In this document: positions 3,826 through 63,640 of the stretch, one piece after another | Layout of the letters: the number at the start of each line of letters is the position of its first letter | Position numbering within the stretch: position 1 is the first letter of the stretch | Assembly (NCBI GenBank): GCA_963675665.1 | Contig: OY776510.1 | Coordinates: 4,608,001-4,672,000 of the forward strand | Source: Spirochaetia bacterium | Lineage (GTDB): Bacteria; Spirochaetota; Spirochaetia; UBA9216 | Direction: 5' to 3' | DNA: 64,000 bases | Notes under the pieces: generated by a model | Seen by the model: only the letters and a program-made list of their open reading frames with translations | What the model was told of the DNA's origin: nothing | Databases searched by the model: none | Position numbers and translations under genes: made by a program

Positions 3826-4815
3826 ATGAACGGCTTTTTTCATGAAATTGAACTGCCCGGGGGTAAAATCCCGGGCAATATTTTTTTAGCCCCGGTCGCA
3901 GGTTTTTCAGATGCGGCATTCAGAAGCATATGTACCGAAACCGGTGCTTCGATGTGCTTTACCGAAATGGTTTCATGCGACGGGATTTTCTATAACGGAG
4001 AAAAAACCATCGCTCTGATGCAAAAAGCCGCAAACGAAAAACATTTTGCAGTTCAGGTATTTACATCTGATCCTGAAATGGCTCTGAAGACTGTTCCGGC
4101 CGTCTTTGAGTTTTCACCGGACGTAATTGACCTGAACTGCGGCTGCCCGGTTCCGAAGGTTGTAAAAAACGGCGCCGGTTCAGCGCTGATGAAAGATATC
4201 CCCAGGCTTAAAGAGATTGTAGCTGCGCTGTACGAAGGCGCATCAAAAGCGTCTTGTCAGCCGGCAGTCTCGGTTAAGATCCGATCCGGCTGGGACAACG
4301 GCAGCATAAATTATATAGAAGCCGCACTGGCTGCTGTTGATGCCGGAGCATCGATGATCAGCCTTCACGCACGCACCCGCGCACAGGGATACTCAGGCAG
4401 GGCGGACTGGAACCACATTAAAAAGCTTAAAGAAACTGTTCCGGTTCCGGTTATAGGTTCCGGAGACCTCTTTTCAGCGGAAGCCGCGCTTGCAATGTTT
4501 GAACAGACAAACTGCGACGGCATTATGTTTTCTCGCGGGGCCCTCGGCAACCCGTGGATATTCGAACAAACCCGGTATCTGCTTGAAACCGGGCGGGCCC
4601 TCCCGAAAATCGCCGACAGGAACAGAATATCGATCGCACTCAGGCATCTTCGGCTTGCAGTTGATTTTCACGGTGAAACAAGGGCCTGCAAAGAGATGAA
4701 AAAGCACCTGTGCTCATACACAAAAGGCACTGAAGGGGCAGCAACGCTCCGCAACAGGATTGTACACGCCTCTACCCTGGCCGAATATGAGGAAATACTC
4801 AAAACAGCCGGATAA
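3826..4815 (+). CDS. dusB: tRNA-dihydrouridine synthase DusB
   Basis: LAPVAG, DLNCGCPVPKV, GAGSALM, SVKIRSGWD, LHARTRAQGYSG. Confidence 0.92.
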   Translation: MNGFFHEIELPGGKIPGNIFLAPVAGFSDAAFRSICTETGASMCFTEMVSCDGIFYNGEKTIALMQKAANEKHFAVQVFTSDPEMALKTVPAVFEFSPDVIDLNCGCPVPKVVKNGAGSALMKDIPRLKEIVAALYEGASKASCQPAVSVKIRSGWDNGSINYIEAALAAVDAGASMISLHARTRAQGYSGRADWNHIKKLKETVPVPVIGSGDLFSAEAALAMFEQTNCDGIMFSRGALGNPWIFEQTRYLLETGRALPKIADRNRISIALRHLRLAVDFHGETRACKEMKKHLCSYTKGTEGAATLRNRIVHASTLAEYEEILKTAG

Positions 4816-4985
4816 TCCGGCAAAAGGTGAAATAACCGATTATCTTCAGACATATGGGTATAAAAGATTTTAATAATTGGAAATTTCAATTTCCAATTAT
4901 CCATAAAACATTAATCCATGAAGTATTTGCGTCAGCAAATACTTCATAAGGTACAGGTGAAATAACCAATTTCACCTGTACCTTA
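4807..4985. repeat. Cluster of perfect hairpins between dusB and purF
   Basis: GCCGGAT-A-ATCCGGC (4807-4821); 12-bp stem 4873-4900; 13-bp stem 4918-4947; 17-bp stem 4947-4985; direct repeat AGGTGAAATAACC at 4825 and 4955. Confidence 0.85.
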
Positions 4986-5020
4986 CTTTACAAGAACGCC
5001 GCGTTTTGATAATTTTTCAT

Positions 5021-6403
5021 GTGGACGAATCAAACGACAATCTTAAACATCATTGCGGAGTAGCGGGTTTTTATTCCGCAGAACCGTCGAATCTTCCTGA
5101 AAAACTGTTTTACAGTCTTTTCTCACTTCAGCACCGAGGCCAGGAGAGCGCCGGAATATCTTATCGCGAAAAAGGGAAAACCGTTACCTACAAGGATCTC
5201 GGCATGGTATCAACGGTTTTATCAAGATATCTTACGATTCAACGTATGGCAAACGCCGGAATCGGGCATGTCCGTTATTCAACCCGCGGCGGAAACAGGC
5301 TTGAAAACGCTCAGCCCATAGCTGTTACCTGTAACAAGGGTGATATTGCCCTTGCGCACAACGGAAATATATCGAACGCGGCAAAACTTCATGAAGAGCT
5401 GACCGAGGCCGGCTCGATTTTTCAATCGAGCTCCGATACCGAGCTGATACTGCATATGATATCGCTCAGCCGTAAACCAGATTTTTTCGAGGCATTCAGG
5501 GAAACTCTGGAGAGGCTTGAAGGCGCATTCAGCATGGTTCTGATACACGACGAAAGCCTGATTGTTGTACGTGACCCGCACGGATTCAGACCGCTTTATA
5601 TAGGAACAGCAGACGGCATAACAGCTGCAGCTTCTGAAACATGCGCACTTGAAACGCTTAATATCACTGATTACCGCCAGGTTGAACCCGGCGAAATAAT
5701 AGTCATAGACTCCGAAGGACAGCGAAGCACCTTTCTGCCTGCTTCGGGCAGAATAAGCCAGTGTATTTTTGAACTAATCTATTTTGCCCGGCCTGATTCC
5801 AGGGTTTTTGACGAATCAGTACACGGCACCAGGAAAAGAATGGGCGCTGCGCTTTGGGAATGTGATCCCGTTGAAGGCGATATAGTCATTCCGGTGCCTG
5901 ATTCCGGTAATAACGCTGCTATCGGGTACGCAAAAGCCTCCGGCATTCCCTTTGATCACGGCCTGACCAGAAATCACTATGCCGGTCGATCGTTTATAAT
6001 GCCGACGACGGCTCAGCGCGAACTTGCCGTCAGAATGAAACTTCATCCCATACGCGAAACAATAGCCGGAAAAAAAATAATACTGGTAGACGACTCCCTT
6101 GTAAGAGGGACAACCAGCAGGATACTGGTCAAAATGCTCAAGGATGCCGGGGCGGCGGAAGTACATCTGAGACTTTCTTCTCCGGAACTGAAATGGCCCT
6201 GTTTTTTCGGAATCGACATTCCGACGAGAGAAGAACTTATTTCCAACAGCAAAACACCCGAGCAGATAGCTGAATATATAGGAGCCGATTCTGTAATGTT
6301 TCTACCTTCAGAGCAGCTAAAAAAATGCGTAAAAACTCCCGGTGACTACTGTTATGCATGTTTTTGCGGGGATTATCCTTATGACAGGCTTTCATCCGTG
6401 TAA
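5021..6403 (+). CDS. purF: Amidophosphoribosyltransferase (Fe-S type with propeptide)
   Basis: CG after an 11-aa propeptide if started at GTG 5021 (ORF open from TTG 5006); LQHRGQESAG, VDDSLVRGTT, CYAC. Confidence 0.95.
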   Translation: MDESNDNLKHHCGVAGFYSAEPSNLPEKLFYSLFSLQHRGQESAGISYREKGKTVTYKDLGMVSTVLSRYLTIQRMANAGIGHVRYSTRGGNRLENAQPIAVTCNKGDIALAHNGNISNAAKLHEELTEAGSIFQSSSDTELILHMISLSRKPDFFEAFRETLERLEGAFSMVLIHDESLIVVRDPHGFRPLYIGTADGITAAASETCALETLNITDYRQVEPGEIIVIDSEGQRSTFLPASGRISQCIFELIYFARPDSRVFDESVHGTRKRMGAALWECDPVEGDIVIPVPDSGNNAAIGYAKASGIPFDHGLTRNHYAGRSFIMPTTAQRELAVRMKLHPIRETIAGKKIILVDDSLVRGTTSRILVKMLKDAGAAEVHLRLSSPELKWPCFFGIDIPTREELISNSKTPEQIAEYIGADSVMFLPSEQLKKCVKTPGDYCYACFCGDYPYDRLSSV

Positions 6404-6435
6404 TCCTGTCATTCAGCAACTGCCCTCCATGGCAG
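6381..6435 (+). repeat. Hairpin module over the purF stop (TCCG- and TCCA-loop hairpins)
   Basis: ATGACAGG-ctttCA-TCCG-TGtaat-CCTGTCAT, then CTGCC-c-TCCA-t-GGCAG. Confidence 0.7.
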
Positions 6436-8083: not shown

Positions 8084-9340
8084 TTGAAAGTTCTTATACT
8101 TGGATCAGGAGCCAGGGAACATGCCATCACCTGGAAATATTCAAAGAGTAAACGGATAACAGGTTTATATATTGCTCCCGGTAATGCCGGAACCGATGAA
8201 TTGGGAGTTAACCTGCCTGACGTTAATCCTGAAAATTCTGAACAGGTCATCAATGCCTGCACAAAATATAATATTTCCCACGTCTTTGTCGGCCCCGAAG
8301 CGCCGCTAGCCGCCGGCATAGTTGATGAATTGAATAAAGCCGGCATCCCTGCAATAGGGCCCCATAAAGCTGCTGCAAGGCTTGAGGGAAGCAAGATTTT
8401 CTCCAAGAATTTTATGAATAAGCATAACATCCCCACAGCAGAAGCCGTAATTTTTGATAAATCCGAGAAATTTGAAAAACACATCAGAAACCAGTCGGGT
8501 CCTGTTGTAATAAAAAAAGACGGCCTGGCCGCGGGTAAGGGCGTTCTTGTATCGGAAGATACTGAAGAACTTGCAGCTTTCGGAAAAGAAATTCTTAAAG
8601 ACGACAGCCTTCTCGTGGAAAAATGCCTTCAGGGCTATGAAGTGTCCATTTTCACTCTTACGGACGGTAAAAATTATAAACTGCTTCCTGTATGCGCTGA
8701 TTTCAAACGCGCCGGAGAAGGCGATACCGGTTTGAATACCGGAGGGATGGGCGCCATCTGCCCGGTCCCCTTTGTAAGCTCTTCAATACTTAACGGAATC
8801 GAAAACAAAATTGTAAAACCGACTTTTGCAGGAATGGAAAAAGATAAACTGAGCTTTATCGGTGTTCTCTATTTCGGAATAATGATGACTGTTGAAGGCC
8901 CGATGCTTCTTGAATATAATGTCCGCTTCGGAGATCCTGAAGCCCAGGTACTGATACCGCTGATAGACTCGGACTTCGGCAATGTTACCGAAGCAATGCT
9001 TAATCAGAACCTTGATGAATACAACCCCAGGGTATCGAACAATTCAGCCCTCGGCGTTGTTGTTGCGGCTGCAGGGTACCCTGCAGGTTATAAAAAAGGT
9101 ATTCCCGTAAAGCCCATCCCCTCCTACCCTGAAAAGGATGCATTAATCTTTCATGCTTCGACCATGGAAGATGAAAACGGAAGACTGCTTACAAACGGAG
9201 GAAGATGTTTTACCTGCGTAGGAATAGGCTCGAACAGCCTGAAAGCAAATGCAAGAGCTTACGAGGCCGTCAAGGGAATTAATTTTGAAGGAGCCTGGTA
9301 CAGGCGGGATATCGGTAAGAAATTCTTTACTAATGAGTAA
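8084..9340 (+). CDS. purD: Phosphoribosylamine--glycine ligase
   Basis: GSGAREHA, VGPEAPL, GLAAGKGV, NTGGMGA, EYNVRFGDPE; TTG start with GGAGG RBS. Confidence 0.97.
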   Translation: MKVLILGSGAREHAITWKYSKSKRITGLYIAPGNAGTDELGVNLPDVNPENSEQVINACTKYNISHVFVGPEAPLAAGIVDELNKAGIPAIGPHKAAARLEGSKIFSKNFMNKHNIPTAEAVIFDKSEKFEKHIRNQSGPVVIKKDGLAAGKGVLVSEDTEELAAFGKEILKDDSLLVEKCLQGYEVSIFTLTDGKNYKLLPVCADFKRAGEGDTGLNTGGMGAICPVPFVSSSILNGIENKIVKPTFAGMEKDKLSFIGVLYFGIMMTVEGPMLLEYNVRFGDPEAQVLIPLIDSDFGNVTEAMLNQNLDEYNPRVSNNSALGVVVAAAGYPAGYKKGIPVKPIPSYPEKDALIFHASTMEDENGRLLTNGGRCFTCVGIGSNSLKANARAYEAVKGINFEGAWYRRDIGKKFFTNE

Positions 9341-9422
9341 AAACAAAGCAGCATCCGTGCTGCTTTGTTTTTCTGAAGTTTGCTCTGCAAACTTCACCTA
9401 CACGGCTTGCCGTCCATGGCAA
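9339..9422 (+). repeat. Three-hairpin module between purD and purE
   Basis: 15-bp perfect stem with TCCG loop (9339-9372); 10-bp perfect stem with TCT loop (9374-9396); TTGCCG-TCCA-TGGCAA (9407-9422). Confidence 0.85.
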
Positions 9423-9434
9423 TGGAGAAAAACC

Positions 9435-9833
9435 ATGAAGGATATTTTATTTATTATAGGTTCGGAATCCGACAAAGCACAGGTTGAACCGGGAATTGCA
9501 CTTGCCGCCGAAAAAAGTCTCAGTTGCGACCTCGCAGTCTATTCGGCACATCGGAACCTTCCTGAACTGACGGATTTTCTTAAAAAAGAGGAAGACAACT
9601 ACAGGGTGATTATAACCGCAGCAGGTCTTTCAGCCGCCCTGCCCGGAGTTGTTGCGGCCATGGTTAAAAAACCGGTGCTCGGCATTCCGCTGGTTTCCGG
9701 CCACCTTGCCGGAATGGATGCCCTGCTTTCGATTCTCCAGCTTCCCAAAGGCATTCCGTGCGCAACAATGGGGATAGGCAAGCAGGGTGTTCTGAACGCC
9801 ATACACCTGGCGGAGCGCATCATCAACTGTTAG
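9435..9833 (+). CDS. purE: PurE (N5-CAIR mutase / AIR carboxylase family), short 132-aa form
   Basis: GSESD, SAHR, PVLGIP, DALLSILQLPKGIP; start moved to ATG 9435 (GGAG RBS); the ORF-track extension overlaps purD and the hairpins. Confidence 0.88.
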   Translation: MKDILFIIGSESDKAQVEPGIALAAEKSLSCDLAVYSAHRNLPELTDFLKKEEDNYRVIITAAGLSAALPGVVAAMVKKPVLGIPLVSGHLAGMDALLSILQLPKGIPCATMGIGKQGVLNAIHLAERIINC

Positions 9834-11096: not shown

Positions 11097-11175
11097 TTAC
11101 CATCCTTTACTGAGCTTTGTAATATTATCGGTATTTATCGGACGGACGTGAGTGTACCGTCACTGTCTGATCATT

Positions 11176-12300
11176 TTACAGATCAGACAGTGCTATGGGT
11201 TCCGGAGAATCTTCTTCTCCCTGTATGGACGCAAACTGCTTAAGAAGTTCTTTTGCCTTTGCATTCATCCGCTGGGGAGTTTCAACTATTAATTTTATAT
11301 ACATATCACCCTTTCGGCTGCTCTGCAGGTACGGTATGCCTTCATTTTTCAGCCTCAGCATTTTTCCCGTCTGTGCTCCCGGCGGTATTTTCAGTTTAAT
11401 CTTCTTGTCTTCAAGGTTTTTAACCTGAACTTCAGCACCGAGAGCAGCCTGAGTAAAAGATATCGGCAGCGCACAGTAAACATTATTACCGTCGCGCTCA
11501 AAATACTTATGGGGTTTAATTTTAATATATACGTAAAGATCGCCGCTGCGCCCTCCGTTATGTCCGGAATCACCCTGGCCGGGAATAGCAATTCTTTTTC
11601 CGTTTTCAATACCTGCGGGTATTTTAACTTTTATTTTCTGCTGCTTTCGTGTTAATCCGCTTCCGTGGCATGCCTTGCACGGGTCTTCAATTATATGGCC
11701 TTCACCGCCGCAGGTATGACATGGAGAGGCAATGGAGAAGAAGCCGGAATTCCTGCGTACCTGGCCAGTACCCTGACAGGTCGGGCAGGTTTTTCTGCCT
11801 GTTCCGGATGATGCACCGGTACCATTGCATGTTTTACAGGTGACGTCATGCGTATAACTGATTTCTGTTGATGTTCCGAACACAGCATCCTTAAACGATA
11901 TTTCAAGATTATAGCGAAGGTCAGAACCCCGGGGAACACCGCCGGTTGAACGTCTGCGCCCGCCGCCGCCTCCGCCGAAGAAAGAATCAAATATTCCCCC
12001 CATATCGCCGAAAATATCTTCAAAATCGTGAAAAACCGAAGAATAATCGTGCCCGCCGCCGGGGCTGTTTATTCCGTCTACTCCGGCGAAACCGAACTGG
12101 TCGTATGCCTTTCTTTTCTTCTCGTCGCTGAGTACTTCGTAGGCTTCCGTGGCTTCCTTGAATTTCTCTTCAGCTTCAGCATTTCCCGCATTCTTGTCAG
12201 GGTGGTATTGTATAGCCAGTTTCCTGTATGCTTTTTTGATGTCATCCTTGCCCGCGGTTTTTTCAACCCCAAGCACTTCATAATAATCTCGTTTAGCCAA
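11176..12300 (-). CDS. dnaJ: Chaperone DnaJ
   Basis: J domain with HPD, G/F region, four CxxCxGxG repeats. Confidence 0.98.
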
Positions 12301-15122: not shown

Positions 15123-18100
15123 CTACTTTTTAGGTTGAAGTTCAAGTATAAGTTCCACTTCTCCCCTTGCAAGCTGTGTAGATTTGGCAATTTCCTCAAC
15201 CTTCCATCCCTGCCTGGCCAGCTTTATAACAACATCGCGCAATTCATGCGGCGGAGCCCCTGTGCCCCTGGTTTTGGTTGAAGATCCCTTTACCAGCGTT
15301 CCAAGCAGTTTCACCTGCTCCTGCGCCTGCTTGTTTACCTCTTCAAGCCGGGTCTCGGTACCGGCAAGCCATTCCCGTGCCTTCTGCATTCGCTCAATTC
15401 TTTCTTCAAGGTCGACCAGCGTAGAATCTATGGTTTCAATATGACCTATTACCGTATCTATCTGCTTCTTGTTCTTGGAAAGAAAATCTATCCGCCGCGT
15501 AAGCTCGTCAAGCCTCGAATTCAGAGGCATACTCTTCTCGGATATCACGCTTATCATATGATCAAGTTCGTTAAGCTGTTCGAAACCGCGGTCAACTCCG
15601 CTGATTGTTGAGTCGACCACCGCTTCCTTCTTCTGCAGACGCTCATAACGGCCCTCCACTTCCTTCTGCAGACCATCAAGCTCTCTGAGTTTCATCTGCA
15701 CTATCTGAAGGCTGTCATCAGCAGCTGTGACCTGATTAAGCCGGGCATCAATCGACTGCGATATACTCATAAGTCGATGAAAGTCGGAATCCAGTTCCTC
15801 AATTTTCCTGCGATCCGCGCTGAAGGCCGCCATTTTTGAGGAAACATCCTCCGCAAGTTTTTTAACTGTGAGAAATTTCTTCTCGGCTTCATGTATTTCG
15901 GCCGCCTGGGCAGTGACCCTGCTGATTTCCATCTGAAGGGCGTTTACACCCGTTTCCAGGGCCTCTTTCATTGAGTCAGCCCGTTCAAAAATCCTGGTCT
16001 GGGCGATAAAACTCTTCTGTTTGCCGTCTATTTCATTGAGCGTAAAGGAAAGCTCCCGGCTTTGTTCCTCGATTTTCTCATACATACGCTTGGCGGCAAG
16101 ATTGAAACCGTCGTTAATCTCGGCTGCCTTGTCATCGAAACCGCGCAGATGCTGATCCAGCTCGTTCTGAATATCACGGCTCCTGCGCTGAATGTCGCTG
16201 ACCAGGTTGTCGAAATCGTTGCGATGAGAGGCCATGGCTTCCCGTATTTCAGCCATACGCTCGGCGGCCTCGGCTTTCATCAGGGAGTACTGCTCCGACA
16301 TTGTATTTTCATTCTCGGACAGCTGCTGATTAACCCTCGCCTGCCAGAGTTCAATTTCTCCGGTCTGCGCTTCAATTTTCTGCTTAATCTTTTCACGATC
16401 TGCAATTACGTTTTCTTCAGCCTCACGCAAACCGGTTTCTGCCTCACGCATAAAACGGTTTATGTCGGCTTTAACAGTCGTACGTGTTTTTTCAATTTCG
16501 TTAAGCAGGAATGTTTCAAGCGATTCATTAGCCTCTGCAACTTCGGTATCAAGCTGTTCCTTCATACCGTCAATAACACCATCGATACTATTAAGCTTTC
16601 TCTTTATAACGCCTTCATAACTCTCGACATGCTGTTCATATTTACTGAATTCTCCGGATGTTTTATCCAGAAGACCGGAGATCTTCCTGTTCAGACCTTC
16701 ATTATAGGTGTTTTCCAGCTCTTCCCGGCCTGCAATTGAATCATTGGAAATCTGTTCAAGCCTGAAATCAATCGACTGCTGCCATTCAAGGAGCTGCTTT
16801 TCCATCAGTCCGCTCTTTTCTTTCAGGTCGTCAAAGAATTCATCCTCGAAATCCTTCAGCTTGACGGACACATTTTCATATGCACTGGCTTTGAGAGCAT
16901 CAAGGTCTTCTTCCAGCCCGGTCATGACATCCCGTGTCGCGGAGATATCGCCGTTAAGAGCGTCGCTGCTTTGTTTCCAGCGTACGTTCATATCATCCCT
17001 GATTTCTTCAAAGCCGGAATTAACTTCTACCACAGCTTTGTCTACCATCTGCTTCAGATTATTTTCAAGCAGATCAATATCGGATGTGATCTCCTCAATT
17101 CTTGTCAGTTTATAGGCAAGGTTCTCTTCAAATTCCGATAGCCTGGATTCCTTTTCATTAACGTTTGCAATCATTTTCTCAACGCGACTGAATACGTCAC
17201 CCTTTGTCCGCTCAACAAGCTTTCTGCTTTCTTCTTCTATTTCAGAAAGCATCTGTTCCGTTTTAGGTTTAAGAGCATCTACCCTGCTTTTTATATCGGC
17301 CTGGCCGTCTTCAAGTTCTTTCTGCAGTTTTGCACGCCATACGGTAATTTCAGACTGGCTTTCACCGAACGAGTTGTCAATTTCAGATCTGTATGAAAGA
17401 GAACCTTTCTTTAAATCTTCAAAAACATTATTGATTTGTTTTCTGGTGTCGCGGGAACGCTCTTCAATATAGGTCTTCAGCGCCGCAAAAACATCATCCT
17501 CAAGAAGTTTTGCCTTTTCGGCTGATTCTTTCAGATTCTGCTGGTAGGTTTCTTCCAAATTGTTGATATTATCCTTGAAAGAAACCAGTTTATTGCCCAG
17601 CAGCTCTCCGATTTCTTCCACATGGGTCCTGAATCGGCTTTCAGAACTGTCAAGACGCTTCTGAAGTTCATTACGTTTGTCTTCCGAAGCAGCAAGCATT
17701 GCATCAAGACTTACGTTGAAATCTTCATTAAGGGCCCGGAGCTTTCCGTCGGCATTATCAATTGATTCTTCAACCTTGTTTGAGATGTCCCGGAGAAATG
17801 TTTCGGCGGCTTTATCGCGTCTGGACTCAAGCGAATCAAGATGAGCCGTAAATTCCTCGACCCTGTCGCTGCCCATGGCAATTCCGTCAAGAACAACCGC
17901 AGCCTGGCGTTCAACTTCGGAAAACAGCTCAATACGTAGTTTCTCAAATTCTTTTTCATTCTTTACGGCAAATTCTTCATTTATCTGGGGGATTACTTTT
18001 TCAATCTGAACTATACGCGTCTGGGCATCCTTCAGACGCTTGCCTACCTTGTCTACAAACTCAGATTCCTGATGCAGTCGTTTAAGGTTCTCGTCAACCT

Positions 18101-18440
18101 TCCCGGTCATACCGACCAGTTCATTTATGGCTTTATCGTATTCTGTAATACGCAAATTGATTGCGTCTATCTCGGCGGCCTTGTTGCTGAAACCTTCCTC
18201 AATGGCTGATATCCTTTTCAGAACTTCCTTGCCGGTTTTCTGATGAACATCAATCTCTATTGCAAGGTTTTTCATTTCCTGCGTCTTCTGATCTACAAAT
18301 ACTTCGATATTGCCGGTAACTTTATCAGAATACCTTCGCACTTTGTCGAGCGAACGGTTATTCCGATCCAGCTGCCTGTAAAGCGCGAGAATAATTAATA
18401 CTATTAATATGGTTATTATATTTCCGATTGAGAATAACAT
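15123..18440 (-). CDS. Large spirochaete coiled-coil protein (SpiroCoCo-like): N-terminal TM, long coiled coil, C-terminal HTH-like motif
   Basis: N-terminal hydrophobic helix then YRQLDRNNRSLDKVRRY; ~1000 aa heptad-rich; C-term GWKVEEIAKSTQLARGEVELILEL. Confidence 0.75.
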   Translation of the reverse strand: MLFSIGNIITILIVLIILALYRQLDRNNRSLDKVRRYSDKVTGNIEVFVDQKTQEMKNLAIEIDVHQKTGKEVLKRISAIEEGFSNKAAEIDAINLRITEYDKAINELVGMTGKVDENLKRLHQESEFVDKVGKRLKDAQTRIVQIEKVIPQINEEFAVKNEKEFEKLRIELFSEVERQAAVVLDGIAMGSDRVEEFTAHLDSLESRRDKAAETFLRDISNKVEESIDNADGKLRALNEDFNVSLDAMLAASEDKRNELQKRLDSSESRFRTHVEEIGELLGNKLVSFKDNINNLEETYQQNLKESAEKAKLLEDDVFAALKTYIEERSRDTRKQINNVFEDLKKGSLSYRSEIDNSFGESQSEITVWRAKLQKELEDGQADIKSRVDALKPKTEQMLSEIEEESRKLVERTKGDVFSRVEKMIANVNEKESRLSEFEENLAYKLTRIEEITSDIDLLENNLKQMVDKAVVEVNSGFEEIRDDMNVRWKQSSDALNGDISATRDVMTGLEEDLDALKASAYENVSVKLKDFEDEFFDDLKEKSGLMEKQLLEWQQSIDFRLEQISNDSIAGREELENTYNEGLNRKISGLLDKTSGEFSKYEQHVESYEGVIKRKLNSIDGVIDGMKEQLDTEVAEANESLETFLLNEIEKTRTTVKADINRFMREAETGLREAEENVIADREKIKQKIEAQTGEIELWQARVNQQLSENENTMSEQYSLMKAEAAERMAEIREAMASHRNDFDNLVSDIQRRSRDIQNELDQHLRGFDDKAAEINDGFNLAAKRMYEKIEEQSRELSFTLNEIDGKQKSFIAQTRIFERADSMKEALETGVNALQMEISRVTAQAAEIHEAEKKFLTVKKLAEDVSSKMAAFSADRRKIEELDSDFHRLMSISQSIDARLNQVTAADDSLQIVQMKLRELDGLQKEVEGRYERLQKKEAVVDSTISGVDRGFEQLNELDHMISVISEKSMPLNSRLDELTRRIDFLSKNKKQIDTVIGHIETIDSTLVDLEERIERMQKAREWLAGTETRLEEVNKQAQEQVKLLGTLVKGSSTKTRGTGAPPHELRDVVIKLARQGWKVEEIAKSTQLARGEVELILELQPKK

Positions 18441-32695: not shown

Positions 32696-33490
32696 TTACA
32701 GGCTTTTTTCGTTTATTCGCTGTATATTTAAAGTTTTACCGTTATTTTTATCAATCGTCAGCAGAACGCCGTTCATTGTAGCAGGTATATCCTCTATTTC
32801 CATTTTAAGCGGCATCTGTGTCTGCTGTCTTTTTATTGCAGTATCGCTGTTAGAACCAATGACACCGGCTTCAGGTCCTGTCATACCTATATCAGTTATA
32901 TATGCGGTTCCGTTTTCCAGAATACGCTCATCACCGGTTTGTATATGGGTGTGAGTTCCTGTAACAGAAGAAACCTGTCCGTCAAGATAAATAGCCAGGG
33001 CTTCTTTCTCTTCAACATTTTCAGCATGGAAATCGACAATTATTATATCTGTTTCCTTCTTAAGTTTTCTTACTTCTTCCTTTCCTACGCTAAACGGACA
33101 ATCCAGATTTGACATATCTACACGTCCCTGCAAATTTAAAAAAGCAACTTTTGTTCCCTTTACATCAACAATACATGAACCGTGTCCGGGGGCCTTTTTG
33201 GGGTAATTGGCAGGCCTCAGTAATTCCGGTTTTGATTCAAGCATCGGAAAAATTTCCTTTTTCTGCCAGACATGGTTGCCGGTAGTTATTACATCTGCTC
33301 CGCTTGAAAAAATCATCTGCGCATTTTCGGGCAGAATGCCGAAACCGTCTGCAGCATTCTCGCCGTTTACCATAACTACATCGGCTTTATATTTTTTAAC
33401 GAGTTTTTTTATTCCTATAAAAACAGCCCTGCAGCCTGGCTGACCAATTATGTCACCAAGAAGCAGGGCATTTATCGTATCAGACATCAT
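32696..33490 (-). CDS. ymdB: YmdB-like metallophosphoesterase
   Basis: GDIIG, NGENAA, TTGNH, DFHAE, GTHTHIQT, DIGMTG; follows rny. Confidence 0.92.
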   Translation of the reverse strand: MMSDTINALLLGDIIGQPGCRAVFIGIKKLVKKYKADVVMVNGENAADGFGILPENAQMIFSSGADVITTGNHVWQKKEIFPMLESKPELLRPANYPKKAPGHGSCIVDVKGTKVAFLNLQGRVDMSNLDCPFSVGKEEVRKLKKETDIIIVDFHAENVEEKEALAIYLDGQVSSVTGTHTHIQTGDERILENGTAYITDIGMTGPEAGVIGSNSDTAIKRQQTQMPLKMEIEDIPATMNGVLLTIDKNNGKTLNIQRINEKSL

Positions 33491-33494
33491 TCCG

Positions 33495-35024
33495 TTATCT
33501 TGCGTACTCGGTCACTCTGGTTTCCCGGATAATAGTAACTTTTATACGTCCCGGGTACCTCAGCTCATCCTCTATACGCTTGGCAATATCCTTTGCAAGT
33601 ATTTTTGAGTCATCATCACTTACAGCTTCGTTATTTACCATAATTCTTAATTCACGACCAGCCTGAATCGCAAAAGCCTTTGAAACACCTTCGAAATCTT
33701 CAGCAATATTTTCAAGGTTCTCAAGGCGTTTGATGTAATTATTCAGCGTTTCACGTCTTGCGCCCGGTCTTGATGCTGATATCGCATCTGCAACCTGTAC
33801 TATCACAGCTTCGATTGTCTGAGGCTCCACATCATTGTGATGTGCAATTATGGCATTAACAACCCGAGGGTCTTCACCCATCTTTTTCGCCAGGCCTGAA
33901 CCCAACTCAGCATGGTTTTCATCGCCTTCGCTCTCAATACCTTTGCCGATATCATGCAGCAAAGCAGCTCTTTTGGCAATTTCCCTGTCCGCACCAATTT
34001 CAGCAGCAATCATGCCGGCTATTACAGCTACTTCCTTTGAGTGATCAAGCACATTCTGTGCATAACTGGTTCTGTAGCGAAGCCTTCCGAGAGCACGGAC
34101 TCCATCCTGCGGAATATTATGAATACCCAGGTCAAAAACAACCTTTTCACCTTCTTCAATGATGGTTTGATTTATCTCTTTGGTTACTTTGTTAACAACC
34201 TCTTCGATTCTTGCCGGATGTATTCTTCCGTCCGAAATCAACCTCTCAAGAGCCACTCTTGCTATCTCTTTTCTTACAGGATCAAAACATGAGATAACCA
34301 CTGCTTCGGGAGTATCATCTATAATGATATCCACCCCGGTCAGAGTTTCAAGAGAACGAATATTTCGTCCCTCACGGCCGATAATCCGGCCTTTCATCTC
34401 ATCATTCGGCAGGTTTACCGATGTAATAGTTACATCAGAACTTACTTCCGTGGCCAAACGCTGAATTGTGCCCATTATTATGCTGCGAGCTTTTTTATCC
34501 GCATTTTTCTGGGCTTCCTGTTCTACTTTATTAACAAGAACAAGAGCATCCTTTTTAGCCTCACTCTCCATAGATTTTATTATTAAATCTTTGGCTTCAT
34601 CACCGGTGATACCGGCAATTTTTTCGAGCTCAGCCTTCCAGCGCTCCTCTTCTTTTTCGAGATAATTTTCTTTTTCTCTTAACTTATCCTCTCGCCCGAC
34701 AATAGCACGTTCCTGATTCTCCAGTGCTGCTGACTTTCTGTCTAGATTTTCTTCTCTTTGTAACGACCTTCTTTCAAGTCTCTGAATTTCATTCCTTCTT
34801 TCTCTGAGCTCCTTTTCCTGTTGAGCTCTTTCTTTAAGCAGTTCGTCTTTCGTCTCCAGCAATAACTCTCGTTTTTTTGCTTCAGCTTCCTTAACTGCAT
34901 CCTGATTCAAACGTGCAGCTTTCTGCTCCGACGAAGACAACTGAAATCTGGCATAAAGCCATCTTATTATCCAACCTAGAACTATTCCAACGAGAGGAAG
35001 AATTATCAACTTAAAATCAAGCAT
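33495..35024 (-). CDS. rny: Ribonuclease Y
   Basis: TM, coiled coil, KH (MKGRIIGREGRNIR), HD domain (LLHDIGK), ADAISASRPGAR. Confidence 0.97.
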   Translation of the reverse strand: MLDFKLIILPLVGIVLGWIIRWLYARFQLSSSEQKAARLNQDAVKEAEAKKRELLLETKDELLKERAQQEKELRERRNEIQRLERRSLQREENLDRKSAALENQERAIVGREDKLREKENYLEKEEERWKAELEKIAGITGDEAKDLIIKSMESEAKKDALVLVNKVEQEAQKNADKKARSIIMGTIQRLATEVSSDVTITSVNLPNDEMKGRIIGREGRNIRSLETLTGVDIIIDDTPEAVVISCFDPVRKEIARVALERLISDGRIHPARIEEVVNKVTKEINQTIIEEGEKVVFDLGIHNIPQDGVRALGRLRYRTSYAQNVLDHSKEVAVIAGMIAAEIGADREIAKRAALLHDIGKGIESEGDENHAELGSGLAKKMGEDPRVVNAIIAHHNDVEPQTIEAVIVQVADAISASRPGARRETLNNYIKRLENLENIAEDFEGVSKAFAIQAGRELRIMVNNEAVSDDDSKILAKDIAKRIEDELRYPGRIKVTIIRETRVTEYAR

Positions 35025-35090: not shown

Positions 35091-38000
35091 TTATTTTATT
35101 AAAACTCTAATATAATCGGTAAGCTTTTTATCAGCCGTTTTCAAACCGGCAAAAAGATACGCATTCTGTTCCTGGAATTTTACAGGAATATAAAGATAAC
35201 CGCTAAAATGTACTCTATCCTCCTTTTTTATCCGATCATCTATACTTACAATTCCCGACTCACTTCCCTTGACAAACAGAAACGTTTTTTTATCAATAAT
35301 CTGTGTAAAAAATGGTTCATCCATTTTAAAAGCCATGAGGTTACGGCCTCTTGAATCCATTCCTACAGAATATTCCACTTTTACCTTATTACCCTGCGTT
35401 GTTATTATAGCAGCGCATAATGCATTAACTTTCTGTGAAACTCTTAATAAAGACTTGGATATTCCGGTAATATTCATATTGTATTCATTAAGGAAAAGAT
35501 CGTAATCCAAACCGCTATCCGAAAGAAGATTCGAAGATTTATATTCCTTCTTTCCGTAATCTTCATCTGTTTCTGCCGTACTAATATTTAAATCAAGCAG
35601 ATTAACCTCTCTGTCTGAAAATATTGATTTTATTTCACCGCTATCTTCAGAAGCTTTCCCAATAACTGCGTCTACAAGCTCTTTAAAATTCTCATTTTTA
35701 GGCCCGGAACCGGATATTGTATCCTCGGAGATATAAAATATTCCATCCTCTTCCTTAATACTGTCGCCAATATTTTTTGTAAATTCGCCAATAACATCTT
35801 CAAGTGTTAATATTTCAATTCTATCGTTATAAACGTTATTCAGCTCATTAAGAAAATCACGTTCCTCAGGAGACAAGTTGATTGCTACAGCTTCCTGCTC
35901 TTTTTCCGGAACTTTCTTTTCTTTTTTGGTTTCCGAAGATGCAACATCTTTAGTTAAAGGTTCCAGTGGTTGTACCTCGACAGCTATTGACGGCCGCCCT
36001 TCCTTAATTGCCTTATAGTCAATATTATAATTATATTTTTTATAGTATAACGCGGATTTACTATCCCTGACCGGGCTCTCAATCTCTATTACTATTCCCA
36101 CCTCACTTTCAGAATCATCTTCGAAGAGTTCAAGCTCTTCGACTTCCTCGAGAACTTCCTCGGAAGGTATTTCCTCAACTTTACCTCCCAACTCAGAAGA
36201 TGATTCCTCAAGTTCCTCAAGTTCCTCAAGTTCCTCAAGTTCCTCAAGTTCCTCAAGTTCCTCAAGTTCCTCAAGTTCCTCAAGTTCCTCAAGTTCCTCA
36301 AGTTCCTCAAGTTCCTCAAGCTCCTCAAGCTCGTCAAGTTCCTCTAGTTCCTCAAGTTCTTCTGCTACTTCCAGGAGTTCAACTGGCGACTCACTTTCCA
36401 CTTCCTCAAGCTCGTCAAGTTCTTCAAGTTCCTCAAGCTCCTCTGTTACTTCCAGAAGTTCAACTGGCGACTCACTTTCCACTTCCTCAAGCTCATCAAG
36501 TTCTTCAAGTTCACCAGAAAAGTCCTCGTCTAATTCCTCAAGTGTTTCAATCTCTTCATAATCCTCAGACACATCATTTTCTGCAACGGTTTCTATCTCA
36601 AATTCATCGTCAAAAACAGCAATATCGCCAACAGCATTCTGCTCCTTAAACATCTCTTCAAGATTAAAAGGTTCACTACCAAGGATATCTTTATCAGGAT
36701 AAATCTCTCTCAACTTCTCCTGCAGGCTTGTTTCTTCAGGTTTTTCTATATCATTTTCAATTGTTATAGTGAATTCTTCATCAAATTCTTTTACAAATAT
36801 ATGGTCAACCCGTATTCCGGTTTCTATTCTTTCTTCTTTCACGACGAGTTTCTCGGGAAATTCTTTCTCATCTTCTTCGAGCTCGGCGACTTCTTCAAAG
36901 TCGCTTACTTCTTCGAGCTCTTCGACTTCACTGAGTTCCTCAGCTTCACCTAGCTCTTCTACTTCTTCAAGCTCCTCTACCTCTTCAACTTCTTCTAAAC
37001 TCTCCGCAGGAGAGTATTCTTCGAGCTCTTCAGCTTCTTCAAGCTCTTCAGCTTCTTCTATTGCTTCAACTTCATCAAGCTCTTCTAAACTCTCCACAGG
37101 AGAGTATTCTTCTACGTCCTCAAGCTCGGCGACTTCTTCAAAGTCGCTTACTTCTTCGAGCTCTTCGACTTCACTGAGTTCCTCAGCTTCACCTATCTCT
37201 TCAACTTCATCAAGCTCTTCTAAACTCTCCGCAGGAGAGTATTCTTCAAGCTCTTCTGCTTCCTCAAGCTCGGCGACTTCTTCTATTGCTTCAACTTCTT
37301 CTAATTCTTCAGCTTCTTCGAGCTCTTCAACTTCTTCGAGTTCGGCGACTTCTTCAAGCTCTTCTGCTTCTTCTAGTGCCTCAACTTCATCAAGCTCTTC
37401 AACTTCTTCTAATTCTTCAACTTCTTCAAGCTCTTCAGCTTCTTCTAATTCTTCAACTTCCTCAAGCTCTTCTAAACTCTCCGCAGGAGAGTATTCTTCG
37501 AGCTCTTCTGCTTCTTCTAGTGCCTCAACTTCATCAAGCTCTTCTAAACTCTCCGCAGGAGAGTATTCTTCGAGTGCTTCTAAACTCTCCACAGTAGAGT
37601 ATTCTTCTACCTTTTCAAAATCAGTTTCTTCTTTTGGAAAATCTGCTTTCTTTATCTTTTCAACCCGGCTTAATTCTGCTCCATCAGCATTTATTATAAA
37701 ATTTCCTTTCGAGATTGCCTTTTGTATGATGTTCTCAATGTTCTTTAAATCAAGCTGTTGAACAGGTTCTTTTAAACTCTTTTCACTCAGTATGTTTAGT
37801 ATCTCTTCCCAATTTTTGTCCAATAATTGGTTATATTCCTCATTTTCAGCTATTTTACCAAGACCTTTTTTAATTTCCTTATTGATTTCCTGCTTATGCA
37901 GCCGGATATTGTCACTGACGGCTTTCCAGTTTAATTCATCTCTTTTACTTATAAATTCTTTTAGAAAACTTACTTGAAGAGTTTTTATTCTGTCAGCCAT

Positions 38001-38948
38001 AATTGTATCGGTATCCTGTCGGATATTCAGAATAAGAAACACTATCAGGAACAGAGTAATACCGAATGAAGCAATAAGCAGGTATTTCAGACCGTTAGTT
38101 AAAACAAATTCAGATTCATTAATTTTTAGACCGCTATACCCATAATGTTCATTCTTAGAACAGAAAATATATACATTTTCTCCGTCTATATTTAACGGAA
38201 GCATAAAAGTATCTTCCGAAAGCTCTCCATACTGCTTATCAATTTCAGATAATATAGAAACTGAGACATTATCAAGATTTATAATGTAGCCATTATTGAC
38301 AATTTGAAGTGTATTACCAAGTTCAAGAACAGAACTTCTCACAAGATACTGAAATAACTCTTTTACCGAAGTGTAAAAAAGAGCGTACCCTTTTATTCTT
38401 TCAAGATTATCATAAACCGGAAAAATATAAATAATCCTGCTATTATCTGCATCCAGCTTTATTTTACCGTTTTTATCAAGTTCACTTTCCAACCCTGAAA
38501 CATCCATCCCTTCAGTTGCAGAATCATAGTTGGTATATACTTTTTTATATTGTGAATCTTCCTTAAGATCGCTATCTAATGAACTGTAATGTATTTTAGA
38601 TTCGGAGTCTATCAGACGTACAAAAAGAAGGCCTCTTGCTTCCTTTTTTATTGTATTAAACAGATTTTCAGTGTTAAAGATATCTTCCTGGCTAAGATTC
38701 GGCAGAAAATTCCTGGATAGAGAACTGGTGTCATAAATAATTTTAAAGGTGTCAAGATTTTGTTTATGGTATAAATCTATATTCTTTGCTAATACAGATG
38801 ATTCTTTTTCATTAAACTGGCTGACACGAGTATGATAAAAGGTTGCTTCTATATAATCAAATAATCCGGAGAATGAAATAAAAATGAATACCGCAAATAT
38901 TATCACACTAATCAACAAACTCAGTGCAATTTTAAATCCTGATTTCAT
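35091..38948 (-). CDS. 1285-aa membrane protein: TM, periplasmic domain, TM, Glu-rich repeat tether, C-terminal globular domain
   Basis: Single open ORF; hydrophobic helices near aa 5-28 and aa 287-307; ~500 aa dominated by E/L/V/A repeats. Confidence 0.85.
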   Translation of the reverse strand: MKSGFKIALSLLISVIIFAVFIFISFSGLFDYIEATFYHTRVSQFNEKESSVLAKNIDLYHKQNLDTFKIIYDTSSLSRNFLPNLSQEDIFNTENLFNTIKKEARGLLFVRLIDSESKIHYSSLDSDLKEDSQYKKVYTNYDSATEGMDVSGLESELDKNGKIKLDADNSRIIYIFPVYDNLERIKGYALFYTSVKELFQYLVRSSVLELGNTLQIVNNGYIINLDNVSVSILSEIDKQYGELSEDTFMLPLNIDGENVYIFCSKNEHYGYSGLKINESEFVLTNGLKYLLIASFGITLFLIVFLILNIRQDTDTIMADRIKTLQVSFLKEFISKRDELNWKAVSDNIRLHKQEINKEIKKGLGKIAENEEYNQLLDKNWEEILNILSEKSLKEPVQQLDLKNIENIIQKAISKGNFIINADGAELSRVEKIKKADFPKEETDFEKVEEYSTVESLEALEEYSPAESLEELDEVEALEEAEELEEYSPAESLEELEEVEELEEAEELEEVEELEEVEELDEVEALEEAEELEEVAELEEVEELEEAEELEEVEAIEEVAELEEAEELEEYSPAESLEELDEVEEIGEAEELSEVEELEEVSDFEEVAELEDVEEYSPVESLEELDEVEAIEEAEELEEAEELEEYSPAESLEEVEEVEELEEVEELGEAEELSEVEELEEVSDFEEVAELEEDEKEFPEKLVVKEERIETGIRVDHIFVKEFDEEFTITIENDIEKPEETSLQEKLREIYPDKDILGSEPFNLEEMFKEQNAVGDIAVFDDEFEIETVAENDVSEDYEEIETLEELDEDFSGELEELDELEEVESESPVELLEVTEELEELEELDELEEVESESPVELLEVAEELEELEELDELEELEELEELEELEELEELEELEELEELEELEELEELEELEESSSELGGKVEEIPSEEVLEEVEELELFEDDSESEVGIVIEIESPVRDSKSALYYKKYNYNIDYKAIKEGRPSIAVEVQPLEPLTKDVASSETKKEKKVPEKEQEAVAINLSPEERDFLNELNNVYNDRIEILTLEDVIGEFTKNIGDSIKEEDGIFYISEDTISGSGPKNENFKELVDAVIGKASEDSGEIKSIFSDREVNLLDLNISTAETDEDYGKKEYKSSNLLSDSGLDYDLFLNEYNMNITGISKSLLRVSQKVNALCAAIITTQGNKVKVEYSVGMDSRGRNLMAFKMDEPFFTQIIDKKTFLFVKGSESGIVSIDDRIKKEDRVHFSGYLYIPVKFQEQNAYLFAGLKTADKKLTDYIRVLIK
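36204..36320. repeat. Perfect 9-bp tandem repeat (TTCCTCAAG)x13 encoding (LEE)n
   Basis: 13 exact copies counted, then degenerate copies and an 81-bp duplication (ACTGGCGAC at 36382 and 36463). Confidence 0.95.
36870..37605. repeat. Degenerate coding repeat block (EEAEEL/EEVEEL units punctuated by EEYS[PT][AV]ESLE)
   Basis: Six YS[PT][AV]ES motifs; GEAEELSEVEELEEVSDFEEVAELE occurs twice, 243 bp apart. Confidence 0.85.
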
Positions 38949-53963: not shown

Positions 53964-54276
53964 TTATTCCTCCTTACTACGATCCTAATGGCTCAAAAAA
54001 TTGTATGACAATGCAGCGTAACCGTGCCGGCAAACTGCCGCTTTTAGGCCACTCTTCATGTTGTCAACAATATATTAGCAATATTCAGGATAAACCTGTC
54101 TTTTTCAGCCAAACTTCACCTGTATAACTGTATGTGAAAAGATAGTAAAGTAATCGGCCATGAGTTAAAACTGACAGCTAAGAACAGAACCACCTTACCA
54201 CCCTAATGACAGCTCAGAAGGACGATTGGTTTGGCAAAATCACCGGACTGAAATTCGATCAGTCCTACAAACAAGC

Positions 54277-54305
54277 ACTATAATTAAAATAGGCTTTTAA
54301 GTCAA
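54277..54305 (-). promoter_or_regulatory. sigma70-type promoter upstream of tuf
   Basis: TTGACT-N17-TATAGT about 310 nt before the tuf ATG. Confidence 0.7.
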
Positions 54306-54352
54306 GCATTGTGCCCGCCGGGATATTTTCTCAGCGGAAAAAAACAAAAAAA

Positions 54353-55207: not shown

Positions 55208-55251
55208 TTACGTGTAATACTCCCTAATTCCACTATTATTTTGTGAGCTTG

Positions 55252-55280
55252 ACTCTAACAGTCAGTCTGAAAAAAGTCAA
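55252..55280 (-). promoter_or_regulatory. sigma70-type promoter of rpsL
   Basis: TTGACT-N17-TAGAGT with TGn extension, lying within the GCTTGACT/AGTCAAGC inverted repeat. Confidence 0.6.
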
Positions 55281-55296
55281 GCCCGCGTAAATCTGA

Positions 55297-55480
55297 CCGA
55301 CGAATCATGATTCAAGCTCCGTCGGCCGACTTCATAAAGAAGTCTAATTTCTTGACAGAAATTTAATTTCCTTTCGGAAATTTAATATACGATGCATCGG
55401 CAGTTTAAATCCGGGAACCTTCGGTTCTAACGGACTCAGCATGAACTGCCGCATCAACACCGTTTCCCAAAAGAAACAGT
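55297..55480 (-). other. Six back-to-back hairpins in the rpoC-rpsL spacer
   Basis: Stems at 55297-55325, 55328-55344, 55346-55363, 55365-55382, 55391-55455, 55459-55480. Confidence 0.65.
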
Positions 55481-55500
55481 TTATTCTCTCTGCCGGTACC

Positions 55501-58500: not shown

Positions 58501-59850
58501 GAAGTCGGCATTATATGCGTGACAAACAAGCGGGTGCAGCTTTATGGCCTTTCCCTGAACAAGAACCGGCTCAAAAGCCTGGATACCGAGCCTGTGCAGG
58601 GTAGGAGCCCTGTTCAGCAGTACCGGATGCTCCCGAACTACCTCGTCAAGAACTGCCCATACTTCAGGTGTTTCCTGCTCAACAAGGTTCTTGGCCTTTT
58701 TAATATTATAAACAACGTCTTTTTCGACGAGCTTTTTCATTATAAACGGTTTGTACAGCTCAAGCGCCATCTTGGTCGGAAGGCCGCATTGATGCATTCT
58801 CAGGCTCGGTCCTACTACAATAACCGAACGGCCGGAATAGTCTACGCGCTTTCCGAGAAGGTTCTGTCTGAATCGTCCCTGTTTACCTTTAAGAAAATCC
58901 GAAAGTGATTTGAGCGGTCTGTTTGAAGCGCCCTTAACAACCCTTTTCTTCTTTGAATTATCAAAAAGCGCGTCTACAGCTTCCTGAAGCATTCTTTTTT
59001 CATTTCTTATTATGATATCGGGAGCATTAAGAGCCATCAGCCTCTTAAGCCTGTTGTTTCTGTTTATCACACGCCTGTATAAATCATTCAGGTCGGAAGT
59101 TGCAAAACGTCCGCCGTCAAGCTGTACCATCGGGCGCAGTTCCGGCGGTATTACCGGGATAACATCCAGAATCATCCACTCGGGTTTGTTTTTTGAATCA
59201 CGGAAGTTTTCTACAATCTCTATACGCTTTAAAAGCCGTTTATCAGCTTTTGCTCCTTTTTCAACCATCTTTGCTCTCAGCTCGACAGACAGAACATCAA
59301 GGTCGATTCGTTCAAGAAGGGTCCTTATAGCCTCGGCACCTATACCGGCGGAAAAACTCATACCGTAACGTTCACGGGCGGTATTATATTCCTCTTCAGT
59401 AAGAAGCTCCATTTTCTTCAGATCGGTGTCACCCGGATCAATAACTATATATTTTTCATAATACAAAATAGATCTGAGCGCAGCAACCGTAAGGTCAAGA
59501 AGAAGACCCATCCGGGAAGGAACAGAGCGGTAATACCATATATGCGATACAGGTGATGCCAGCTCAATATGCCCCATTCTTTCTCGTCTGACCTTGAAAT
59601 GGGTAACCTCTACACCACAGCGATCACAAATAACGCCCTTATAGCGAATAGACTTGAACTTGCCGCAGTAACATTCCCATTCCTTTGTGGTTCCGAATAT
59701 CCTTTCGCAGAACAGGCCGTCTTTTTCCGGCCTTAGCGTACGATAATTGATAGTCTCCGGCTTTTTTACTTCGCCGTAAGACCACGCCCTTATCTGCTCA
59801 GGCGACGCCAGCATTATCTGTATATGATCAAAATCCTGTATTTCTCTCAT
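55501..59850 (-). CDS. rpoC: RNA polymerase beta' subunit
   Basis: NADFDGDQM catalytic motif, Zn-finger Cys residues, SAASFQET. Confidence 0.99.
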
Positions 59851-59870
59851 TTTTTCTCCCTTAATGTCTC

Positions 59871-59981
59871 CCCGTCAAAAGCTGCCCGGCAGCTTAGATG
59901 ACTGGGTAAACAGAGTGAAGAACGTAAAGCAGAGCTTTGCGTTCTTCTGAGTAACATAGGACACGGATGTCCAATGTTACT
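59871..59981 (-). repeat. Three-hairpin module between rpoB and rpoC
   Basis: Minus strand: 14-bp stem with TCCG loop (59950-59981), 14-bp stem with TCT loop (59917-59947), each with one mismatch; AAGCTGCC-g-GGCAGCTT (59879-59895). Confidence 0.85.
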
Positions 59982-63608: not shown

Positions 63609-63640
63609 AACAAAACCCACCGGGAGCGCAGTCCCGGTGG
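63609..63640 (-). terminator. Terminator/attenuator between rplL and rpoB
   Basis: CCACCGGGA-ctgcgc-TCCCGGTGG followed by GTTTTGTT. Confidence 0.7.

Follow-up and report, generated by a model that had tools for sequence, protein, structure and literature searches.

Do the hairpins that lie on the stop codons of purD, rpoB and purF in the DNA of a Spirochaetia bacterium belong together as one element, and if they do, is this element of a new kind or of a known one? The stretch analysed here, called the window, is 64,000 nucleotides (nt) long (contig OY776510.1 of assembly GCA_963675665.1, positions 4,608,001 to 4,672,000) and has a G+C content of 44%. A reading made from the letters alone, the sequence-only reading, had described a hairpin module with conserved loops and variable stems after purD and after rpoB, with a shorter copy in purF, and all the sequences that it quoted are present at these places. 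We find that the module is real and beyond chance, that it is defined by its structure, and that it recurs as had been proposed, with at least three full copies and one partial copy in the 64 kb. It most likely belongs to a known class of palindromic intergenic repeats and not to a new class, the host being newly described for it.

Copy 1 (9339-9422, + strand) occupies the purD-purE spacer and copy 2 (59981-59879, - strand) occupies the rpoB-rpoC spacer. Their parts are the following.

9338..9340, + strand: stop codon TAA of purD, bases 2 and 3 of which are the first bases of hairpin 1
9339..9372, + strand: copy 1 hairpin 1, 15 perfect pairs, TCCG loop with CA/TG closing
9374..9396, + strand: copy 1 hairpin 2, 10 perfect pairs, GAAG/CTTC base, TCT loop with GC/GC closing
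9407..9422, + strand: copy 1 hairpin 3, 5 pairs, TCCAT within the loop
59950..59981, - strand: copy 2 hairpin 1, 13 pairs and one T.T mismatch, TCCG loop
59917..59947, - strand: copy 2 hairpin 2, 13 pairs and one C.A mismatch, GAAG/CTTC base, TCT loop with GC/GC closing
59879..59895, - strand: copy 2 third hairpin, 7 pairs, CGG loop, then TTTT

In copy 1 as in copy 2, the first base of the hairpin 1 stem is base 2 of a stop codon, TAA for purD and TAG (59982-59980, - strand) for rpoB, exactly as the sequence-only reading had it. The arms of hairpin 1 in copy 1 carry an A-run on the 5' side and a T-run on the 3' side. At the other end of this copy, hairpin 3 stops 1 nt before the GGAG of purE, whose ATG is at 9435. 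The C.A mismatch in hairpin 2 of copy 2 becomes a G.U pair on the + strand. The third hairpin of copy 2 occupies the position of hairpin 3, with a sequence different from that of copy 1, and is followed by the ATG of rpoC at 59850. Common to the two copies are CATCCGTG, GCTCTGC, CTTCAC and, at the junction, TGTTNNTCNGAAG in the same register.

When 21 of these bases were specified in a gapped pattern, the window gave two matches and each of 100 shuffles none. The parts taken singly are less telling: CATCCGTG alone occurs four times in the window for 1.19 expected (3 of 100 shuffles reach four), with three of the four occurrences falling in the claimed copies, and GCTCTGC alone is not enriched (7 against 6.37 expected). 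Folding energies are low for both copies, -38.6 kcal/mol for copy 1 (z -6.0) and -53.9 kcal/mol for copy 2 (z -6.1), and none of 200 shuffles was as good in either case. Stem interiors were said to differ in sequence and yet remain paired, and this is what the MAFFT alignment of copies 1 and 2 gave for the 15 pairs of hairpin 1: 9 are invariant, in 5 both partners differ, 1 is unpaired, and in no pair does one partner alone differ. With two sequences the control for such paired changes is weak, 18 of 500 shuffles equalling the observed value. It had also been predicted that a module defined in this way would be barely visible to a similarity search; indeed, the local alignment of the purD spacer with the rpoB spacer is weak, its score being reached by 10 of 1000 shuffles.

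Could these structures be ordinary terminator or attenuator hairpins of independent origin, alike through favoured UNCG-type tetraloops and A/T-rich stem bases? UCCG is a member of the UNCG loops. Hairpin 1 of copy 1 resembles an intrinsic terminator, with its GC-rich top, the A-run before and the T-run after, TTTT follows the third hairpin of copy 2, and the absence of enrichment of GCTCTGC by itself would also fit. Against this, the 21 specified bases are held in one register over two hairpins and their junction, which the 100 shuffles did not match even once, and hairpin 2 of a further copy (copy 4, below) repeats an arm of copy 1 with a 2-pair insertion. Moreover, hairpin 1 of copy 2 has no T-run, no terminator-like site was scored in 59600-60200, and transcription of an essential gene would be lost if a full terminator stood between rpoB and rpoC. 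We hold independent terminators to be extremely improbable.

Two further copies are found near purF. Copy 3 is the partial one, and copy 4 lies in the dusB-purF spacer.

6381..6412, + strand: copy 3 hairpin-1-like structure, 8 outer pairs, then 4 pairs and 2 mismatches, CATCCGTG at the top
6420..6435, + strand: copy 3 hairpin 3, TGCCNTCCATGGCA core identical to that of copy 1
4947..4985, - strand: copy 4 hairpin-1-like structure, 17 perfect pairs, 5-nt loop, begins with TA
4918..4947, - strand: copy 4 hairpin-2-like structure, 13 perfect pairs, 4-nt loop different from the others
4873..4900, - strand: copy 4 third hairpin, 12 perfect pairs, 17 nt past hairpin 2

The shorter copy announced in purF is thus there with its hairpins 1 and 3. 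Hairpin 2 is missing from it, and hairpin 1 overlaps the last codons of purF: it encodes them, CATCCGTG included, and has the stop TAA (6401-6403) in its 3' arm. This copy folds weakly (-21.4 kcal/mol, z -1.7, 11 of 200 shuffles as good). The end that the two pur copies were said to have in common is well supported, TGCCNTCCATGGCA being present at 6421-6434 and 9408-9421 and nowhere else in the window, for 0.07 matches expected.

All three copies listed in the sequence-only reading were found, but a fourth one, copy 4 (4873-4985, - strand), had been overlooked. It is inverted relative to dusB and purF, and its loops are unlike those of copies 1 to 3. The conservation of the loops therefore holds for copies 1 to 3 only, and the orientation relative to the genes for 3 of the 4 copies. 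Read on the - strand, copy 4 nevertheless follows the plan of the others: its hairpin 2 shares the TGAAG..GC / GC..CTTCA frame with copy 1 and is longer by 2 pairs, and its third hairpin is placed as hairpin 3, with an unrelated sequence. Folding of the dusB-purF spacer, with its three perfect hairpins (12, 13 and 17 pairs), gave a z of -12.6.

Support for copies 3 and 4 comes from the covariance-model check that had been suggested. The model, R1, was built from copies 1 and 2 and run over the window with filters off; it carries a misaligned hairpin 2 of copy 1, MAFFT having failed to align hairpin 2 structurally. The training copies scored 88.3 and 77.8 bits, their opposite strands being also matched. 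Beyond them, R1 matched copy 4 (4915-4985, - strand) at 28.9 bits and the purF copy (6379-6428) at 20.7 bits, whereas the highest control scores were 18.7 bits (96 kb of unrelated genomes, filters off) and 19.3 bits (819 kb of unrelated DNA, default filters).

The purF tail YDRLSSV, which is encoded by hairpin 1, was found in none of 17 relatives at 79-89% identity; in every one of them the conserved YP is followed by V or I. This evidence is modest, as the tails of the relatives vary anyway. In contrast, purD terminates at the ancestral residue, and copy 1 therefore lies exactly at an old stop codon. As to the start of purF, the longest open reading frame begins with TTG at 5006; an identical database protein of 460 amino acids is 5 residues shorter, so that the purF start would be GTG at 5021.

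The four copies are modular. Hairpins 1 (32-39 nt) and 2 (23-31 nt) are adjacent and placed in gene-end spacers. Hairpin 2, which the purF copy lacks, has 10, 13 or 14 pairs in the three others; one hairpin 3 sequence is common to two copies, and the remaining two differ from it. A scan with a descriptor for hairpins with TCCG, TCCA, CGGA or TGGA loops gave strong matches at the known copies only. Perfect hairpins of at least 10 pairs number 7 in the window against 0.24 in 100 mononucleotide shuffles (largest number 2), and 5 of the 7 fall in the two pur spacers. These five contain 67 Watson-Crick pairs and not one G-U pair; the imperfect hairpins, for their part, show mismatches and not wobbles. 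Three copies are on the coding strand inside operons and the fourth is inverted. The module recurs, then, with paired double changes and a modular make-up, in both orientations and at stop codons.

To which known elements does it compare? The novelty claimed for it was not upheld, since the TD-1 and TD-2 motifs share its properties (PMC1950547, in excerpt) and REPs that supply stop codons are already in print (PMC3733652, in excerpt). REP/BIME elements include GTAG- and CGTC-tagged super-families and go with RAYT nucleases (Di Nocera et al. 2013, PMC3733652; Nunvar et al. 2010, PMC2817692). Like them, the module consists of 20-40-nt palindromic units in gene-end spacers, often in tandem, and in both orientations. 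REP termini can also provide the stop codon of a flanking gene, and those of the GTAG-tagged group often give the flanking genes their TAG stop (PMC3733652, same excerpt). The module also differs from REPs. The unpaired GTAG or CGTC tag is not found, because the heads of the four copies read GTAA, TTAG, TTAT and GTAA with the A paired in the stem; and the loops are conserved and the stem interiors variable, while typical REPs show the reverse.

Integron attC sites are also imperfect palindromes with variable stems, recognised by their structure and located just past the stop codons of cassettes. We rejected this candidate: the hosts of the module are core genes (purD, rpoB) and not cassettes, the outer bases read in copies 1 and 2 do not fit the RYYYAAC / GTTRRRY core sites, and there is no integrase in the window.

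The comparison with TD-1 and TD-2 is closer in lineage. These motifs, with 28 and 36 representatives, respectively, were then found only in Treponema denticola, and in seven cases a TD-1 copy overlaps with the reverse complement of a TD-2 copy (Weinberg et al. 2007, PMC1950547; this and the following statements on the motifs are from an excerpt of the paper). Both show covariation and stems that are modular or variable in length, and their function was not known; TD-1 is usually in a 5' regulatory position, which 2 of 29 copies are not, and TD-2 was proposed to be a non-coding RNA (PMC1950547). Our literature searches gave no later paper in which they are named. Our module is likewise a recurring, covarying multi-hairpin module of a spirochaete, with modular or variable-length stems. 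A match to a described Rfam family had been named as something that would remove its novelty. No family matched the window at gathering scores. Below threshold, copy 2 matched TD-2 (RF03162, in clan CL00124 together with TD-1) over the full model, 1-98, on the + strand, that is, antisense to rpoBC, with 22.6 bits and an E value of 0.12 for a gathering score of 48.7.

When copy 1 was compared by eye, unscored, with the TD-2 consensus, its opposite strand gave the same hairpins in the same order and orientation. It begins, as the consensus does, with a short gcc/ggc hairpin with an AUGGA loop (the reverse complement of the TCCAT of hairpin 3), continues with a 10-11-pair hairpin that begins with GA and leads into UUUGC, and finishes with a hairpin of 14-15 pairs. 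At the top of this last hairpin both read gcACGGAUgc, to which the CATCCGTG region is the reverse complement. The other copies fit this order less well by eye: copy 2 in hairpins 2 and 3 only, copy 3 without the middle hairpin, and copy 4 in the order but not in the loops. In addition, the hairpin 2 loop and the linkers differ from TD-2, and the host here is not Treponema. The closest named relatives of purD are proteins from metagenome-assembled genomes of 'Spirochaetales bacterium' (75-85% identity) and the one of Spirochaeta cellobiosiphila (61%), from which we conclude that the host is a free-living spirochaete. We consider the TD-2 lead worth keeping, because the consensus fits the opposite strand of copy 1, which was not involved in finding TD-2.

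Does this mean that the modules are TD-2-type genes for small antisense RNAs, on the strand opposite to purD/purE and rpoB/rpoC? The sole Rfam match, being TD-2 and antisense to rpoBC over the full model, would agree with it, as would the change of C.A into G.U on the antisense strand of copy 2 hairpin 2 and the non-coding RNA suggested for TD-2 itself. However, 22.6 bits for a gathering score of 48.7 is within the range of hairpin noise, a scan for the sigma-70 consensus found no promoter-like site on the antisense strand beside copy 1 or copy 2, copy 4 is oppositely oriented, and hairpin 3 of copy 1 has a G.U pair that would speak for the coding strand instead. Antisense RNA genes are in our view very unlikely.

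The explanation towards which we lean is that of a REP/TD-like palindromic repeat family, with copies that are co-transcribed within operons. A REP-like DNA repeat is favoured by the absence of G-U pairs, the one inverted copy, the modular hairpins and the lineage-specific purF tail. This would be a small non-coding family of the REP/BIME and TD-1/TD-2 type, with up to three independent hairpins per copy, each of which may be present, absent or swapped. The copies are placed in gene-end spacers, with TA, the bases that they begin with, either falling on the stop codon or taking its place. The family would be maintained, or have been spread, as DNA, through an enzyme that reads hairpins or through the copying of master copies.

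Several results weigh against this explanation. Copies 1, 3 and 4 gave no TD-1 or TD-2 match at E values up to 10. As to copy 2, its TD-2 score is indistinguishable from noise, because spurious hairpin matches in the dusB-purF spacer reach 25.1 bits (Plasmid_RNAIII) and 22.9 bits (a plastid 3' untranslated region family). The search for copies in the source's own DNA spans the 64-kb window, so that a family of many copies rests on four. No transposase or HUH (RAYT, IS200-type) gene was seen among the 62 open reading frames of the window that were scanned, 6 of them being without any family at the thresholds applied; this is a further difference from REPs, and the RAYT/TnpA gene that the sequence-only reading had proposed to look for beside the copies was thus not found within the window. 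Neither did the four copies, read by eye, show a consistent pattern of target-site (TA) duplication or of terminal inverted repeats. The effects on mRNA considered below are wholly inferred. Finally, the same orientation of 3 of the 4 copies and the identical loops of copies 1 to 3 would be explained by a dedicated RNA function too.

The scan of other genomes also counts on this side. The pattern CATCCGTGN{5,20}TCNGAAGN{1,12}GCTCTGC, with its 21 specified bases, was run over a collection of 185,579 representative genomes. It gave 49 single stretches in unrelated taxa, against about 52 estimated by chance (192 gap combinations, two strands, 596 Gb, equal base frequencies), and none of them is module-like. 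Contiguous pairs counted from the loops did not exceed 5 in hairpin 1 and 6 in hairpin 2, and the best covariance-model score was 19.3 bits; the covariance model is the better judge of the two, as the loop-pair measure would give copy 2 only 5 and 5. The source genome is not among the matches, though the window matches twice, which means that it is absent from the collection or different there. Among plasmids, blastn found four 32-33-nt matches to copy 1 (E values 0.06-0.8) and none to copy 2.

The main rival is a cis-acting RNA with a dedicated role, comparable to TD-1 and placed in the 5' leader of the cistron that follows (purE, rpoC, purM). Its loops (AUCCGU, UCU, UCCAU) would be read by a protein or another RNA, and hairpin 3, near the ribosome-binding site, would tune downstream translation. 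This rival would account for the 3 of 4 copies that are on the coding strand and immediately precede a cistron of their own operon, and for copies 1 to 3 having the same loops and closing pairs on different stems. The end of copy 1 hairpin 3, 1 nt before GGAG, agrees with it as well. The UGGAG of the ribosome-binding site finds its complement in the hairpin 3 loop, as UCCA or, in the purF copy, as CUCCA, and the minimum-energy fold computed for copy 1 takes this alternative pairing. The usual 5' regulatory position of TD-1, as excerpted above, points the same way. A cis-acting RNA is however poorly compatible with copy 4, inverted and with other loops, and the genes that it would serve are unrelated (purine synthesis, RNA polymerase). 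The absence of any G-U among the 67 perfect pairs would be unusual if selection acted on folding alone; the purF tail encoded by hairpin 1 is missing in 17 of 17 close relatives; and the Rfam TD-1 model matches no copy at E values up to 10. We regard this rival as possible, if doubtful.

Under the explanation that we prefer, a palindromic repeat family, the hairpins would act in mRNA secondarily, because the module is transcribed inside the pur and rpoBC operons. They could be barriers to 3' exonucleases, or processing points between cistrons. The genes for RNase Y and YmdB are adjacent in the window (32696-35024), and we count them in favour of the repeat family; they may offer a route for the processing of structured operon spacers. 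Hairpin 1 might also be a brake on terminating ribosomes, since it begins inside the stop codon; E. coli REPs at most 15 nt from the stop are reported to stall ribosomes (PMC12306157, in excerpt, citing Liang et al. 2015). The RNA signal setting stoichiometry inside operons, which was part of the sequence-only reading, is possible.

The genes of the window are arranged as follows. Those on the + strand are dusB and then purF-purM-purN-purD-purE; beyond 9892 almost all genes are on the - strand, namely rlmB, dnaJ-dnaK-grpE, an ExbB/ExbD cluster, RNase Y with YmdB, ribosomal protein clusters, rpsL-rpsG, rpoC and rpoB. GC skew tracks the coding strand and is uninformative on the direction of replication. 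Two long open reading frames, 35091-38948 and 15123-18440 (1285 and 1105 amino acids), had no Pfam match at E values up to 1e-8, and the region of the first has a G+C content of only 37-39% with a strongly negative GC skew.

Other hairpins of the window also touch gene ends. A perfect 12-pair hairpin at 11161-11192 has the dnaJ stop TAA (11178-11176, - strand) inside its 8-nt loop and encodes the last codons of dnaJ in its 5' arm; its sequence is unrelated to the module. At 4807-4821, the dusB stop TAA forms the 3-nt loop of a 6-pair GC-rich hairpin. Counting hairpins with a perfect stem of at least 6 pairs that lie over the stop or at most 3 nt past it, 4 of 59 gene ends have one, for a rough chance expectation of about 2. 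Between rplL and rpoB, a GC-rich hairpin of 9 pairs that leads into a T-rich run (63617-63640) is probably the usual attenuator of the operon, and two more long hairpins are found further on in the rplL-rpoB spacer. Strong folding was also computed for the rpsG-tuf spacer (53964-54352, 389 nt, -111 kcal/mol) and for the rpoC-rpsL spacer (55208-55500, 293 nt, -102 kcal/mol). There is no fusA between rpsG and tuf, and neither of these two spacers has an Rfam family at gathering score.

A bolder proposal, which we think unlikely, is that TD-type modules are spirochaete-wide, and that a dedicated protein, reading their conserved loops (AUCCGU, UCU, UCCAU), puts the modules exactly at the TA of stop codons or maintains them there. 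They would then punctuate operons, even between rpoB and rpoC, and set the relative output of the neighbouring cistrons.

TD-1 and TD-2 have been without a known function since 2007, and the stops of purD, purF and rpoB are concrete and essential loci at which to test one, in a distant free-living spirochaete. Such loci could separate selfish DNA, mRNA punctuation and brakes on terminating ribosomes. For annotation, they indicate that a repeat can supply the last codons of a gene together with its stop, as is the case of purF.

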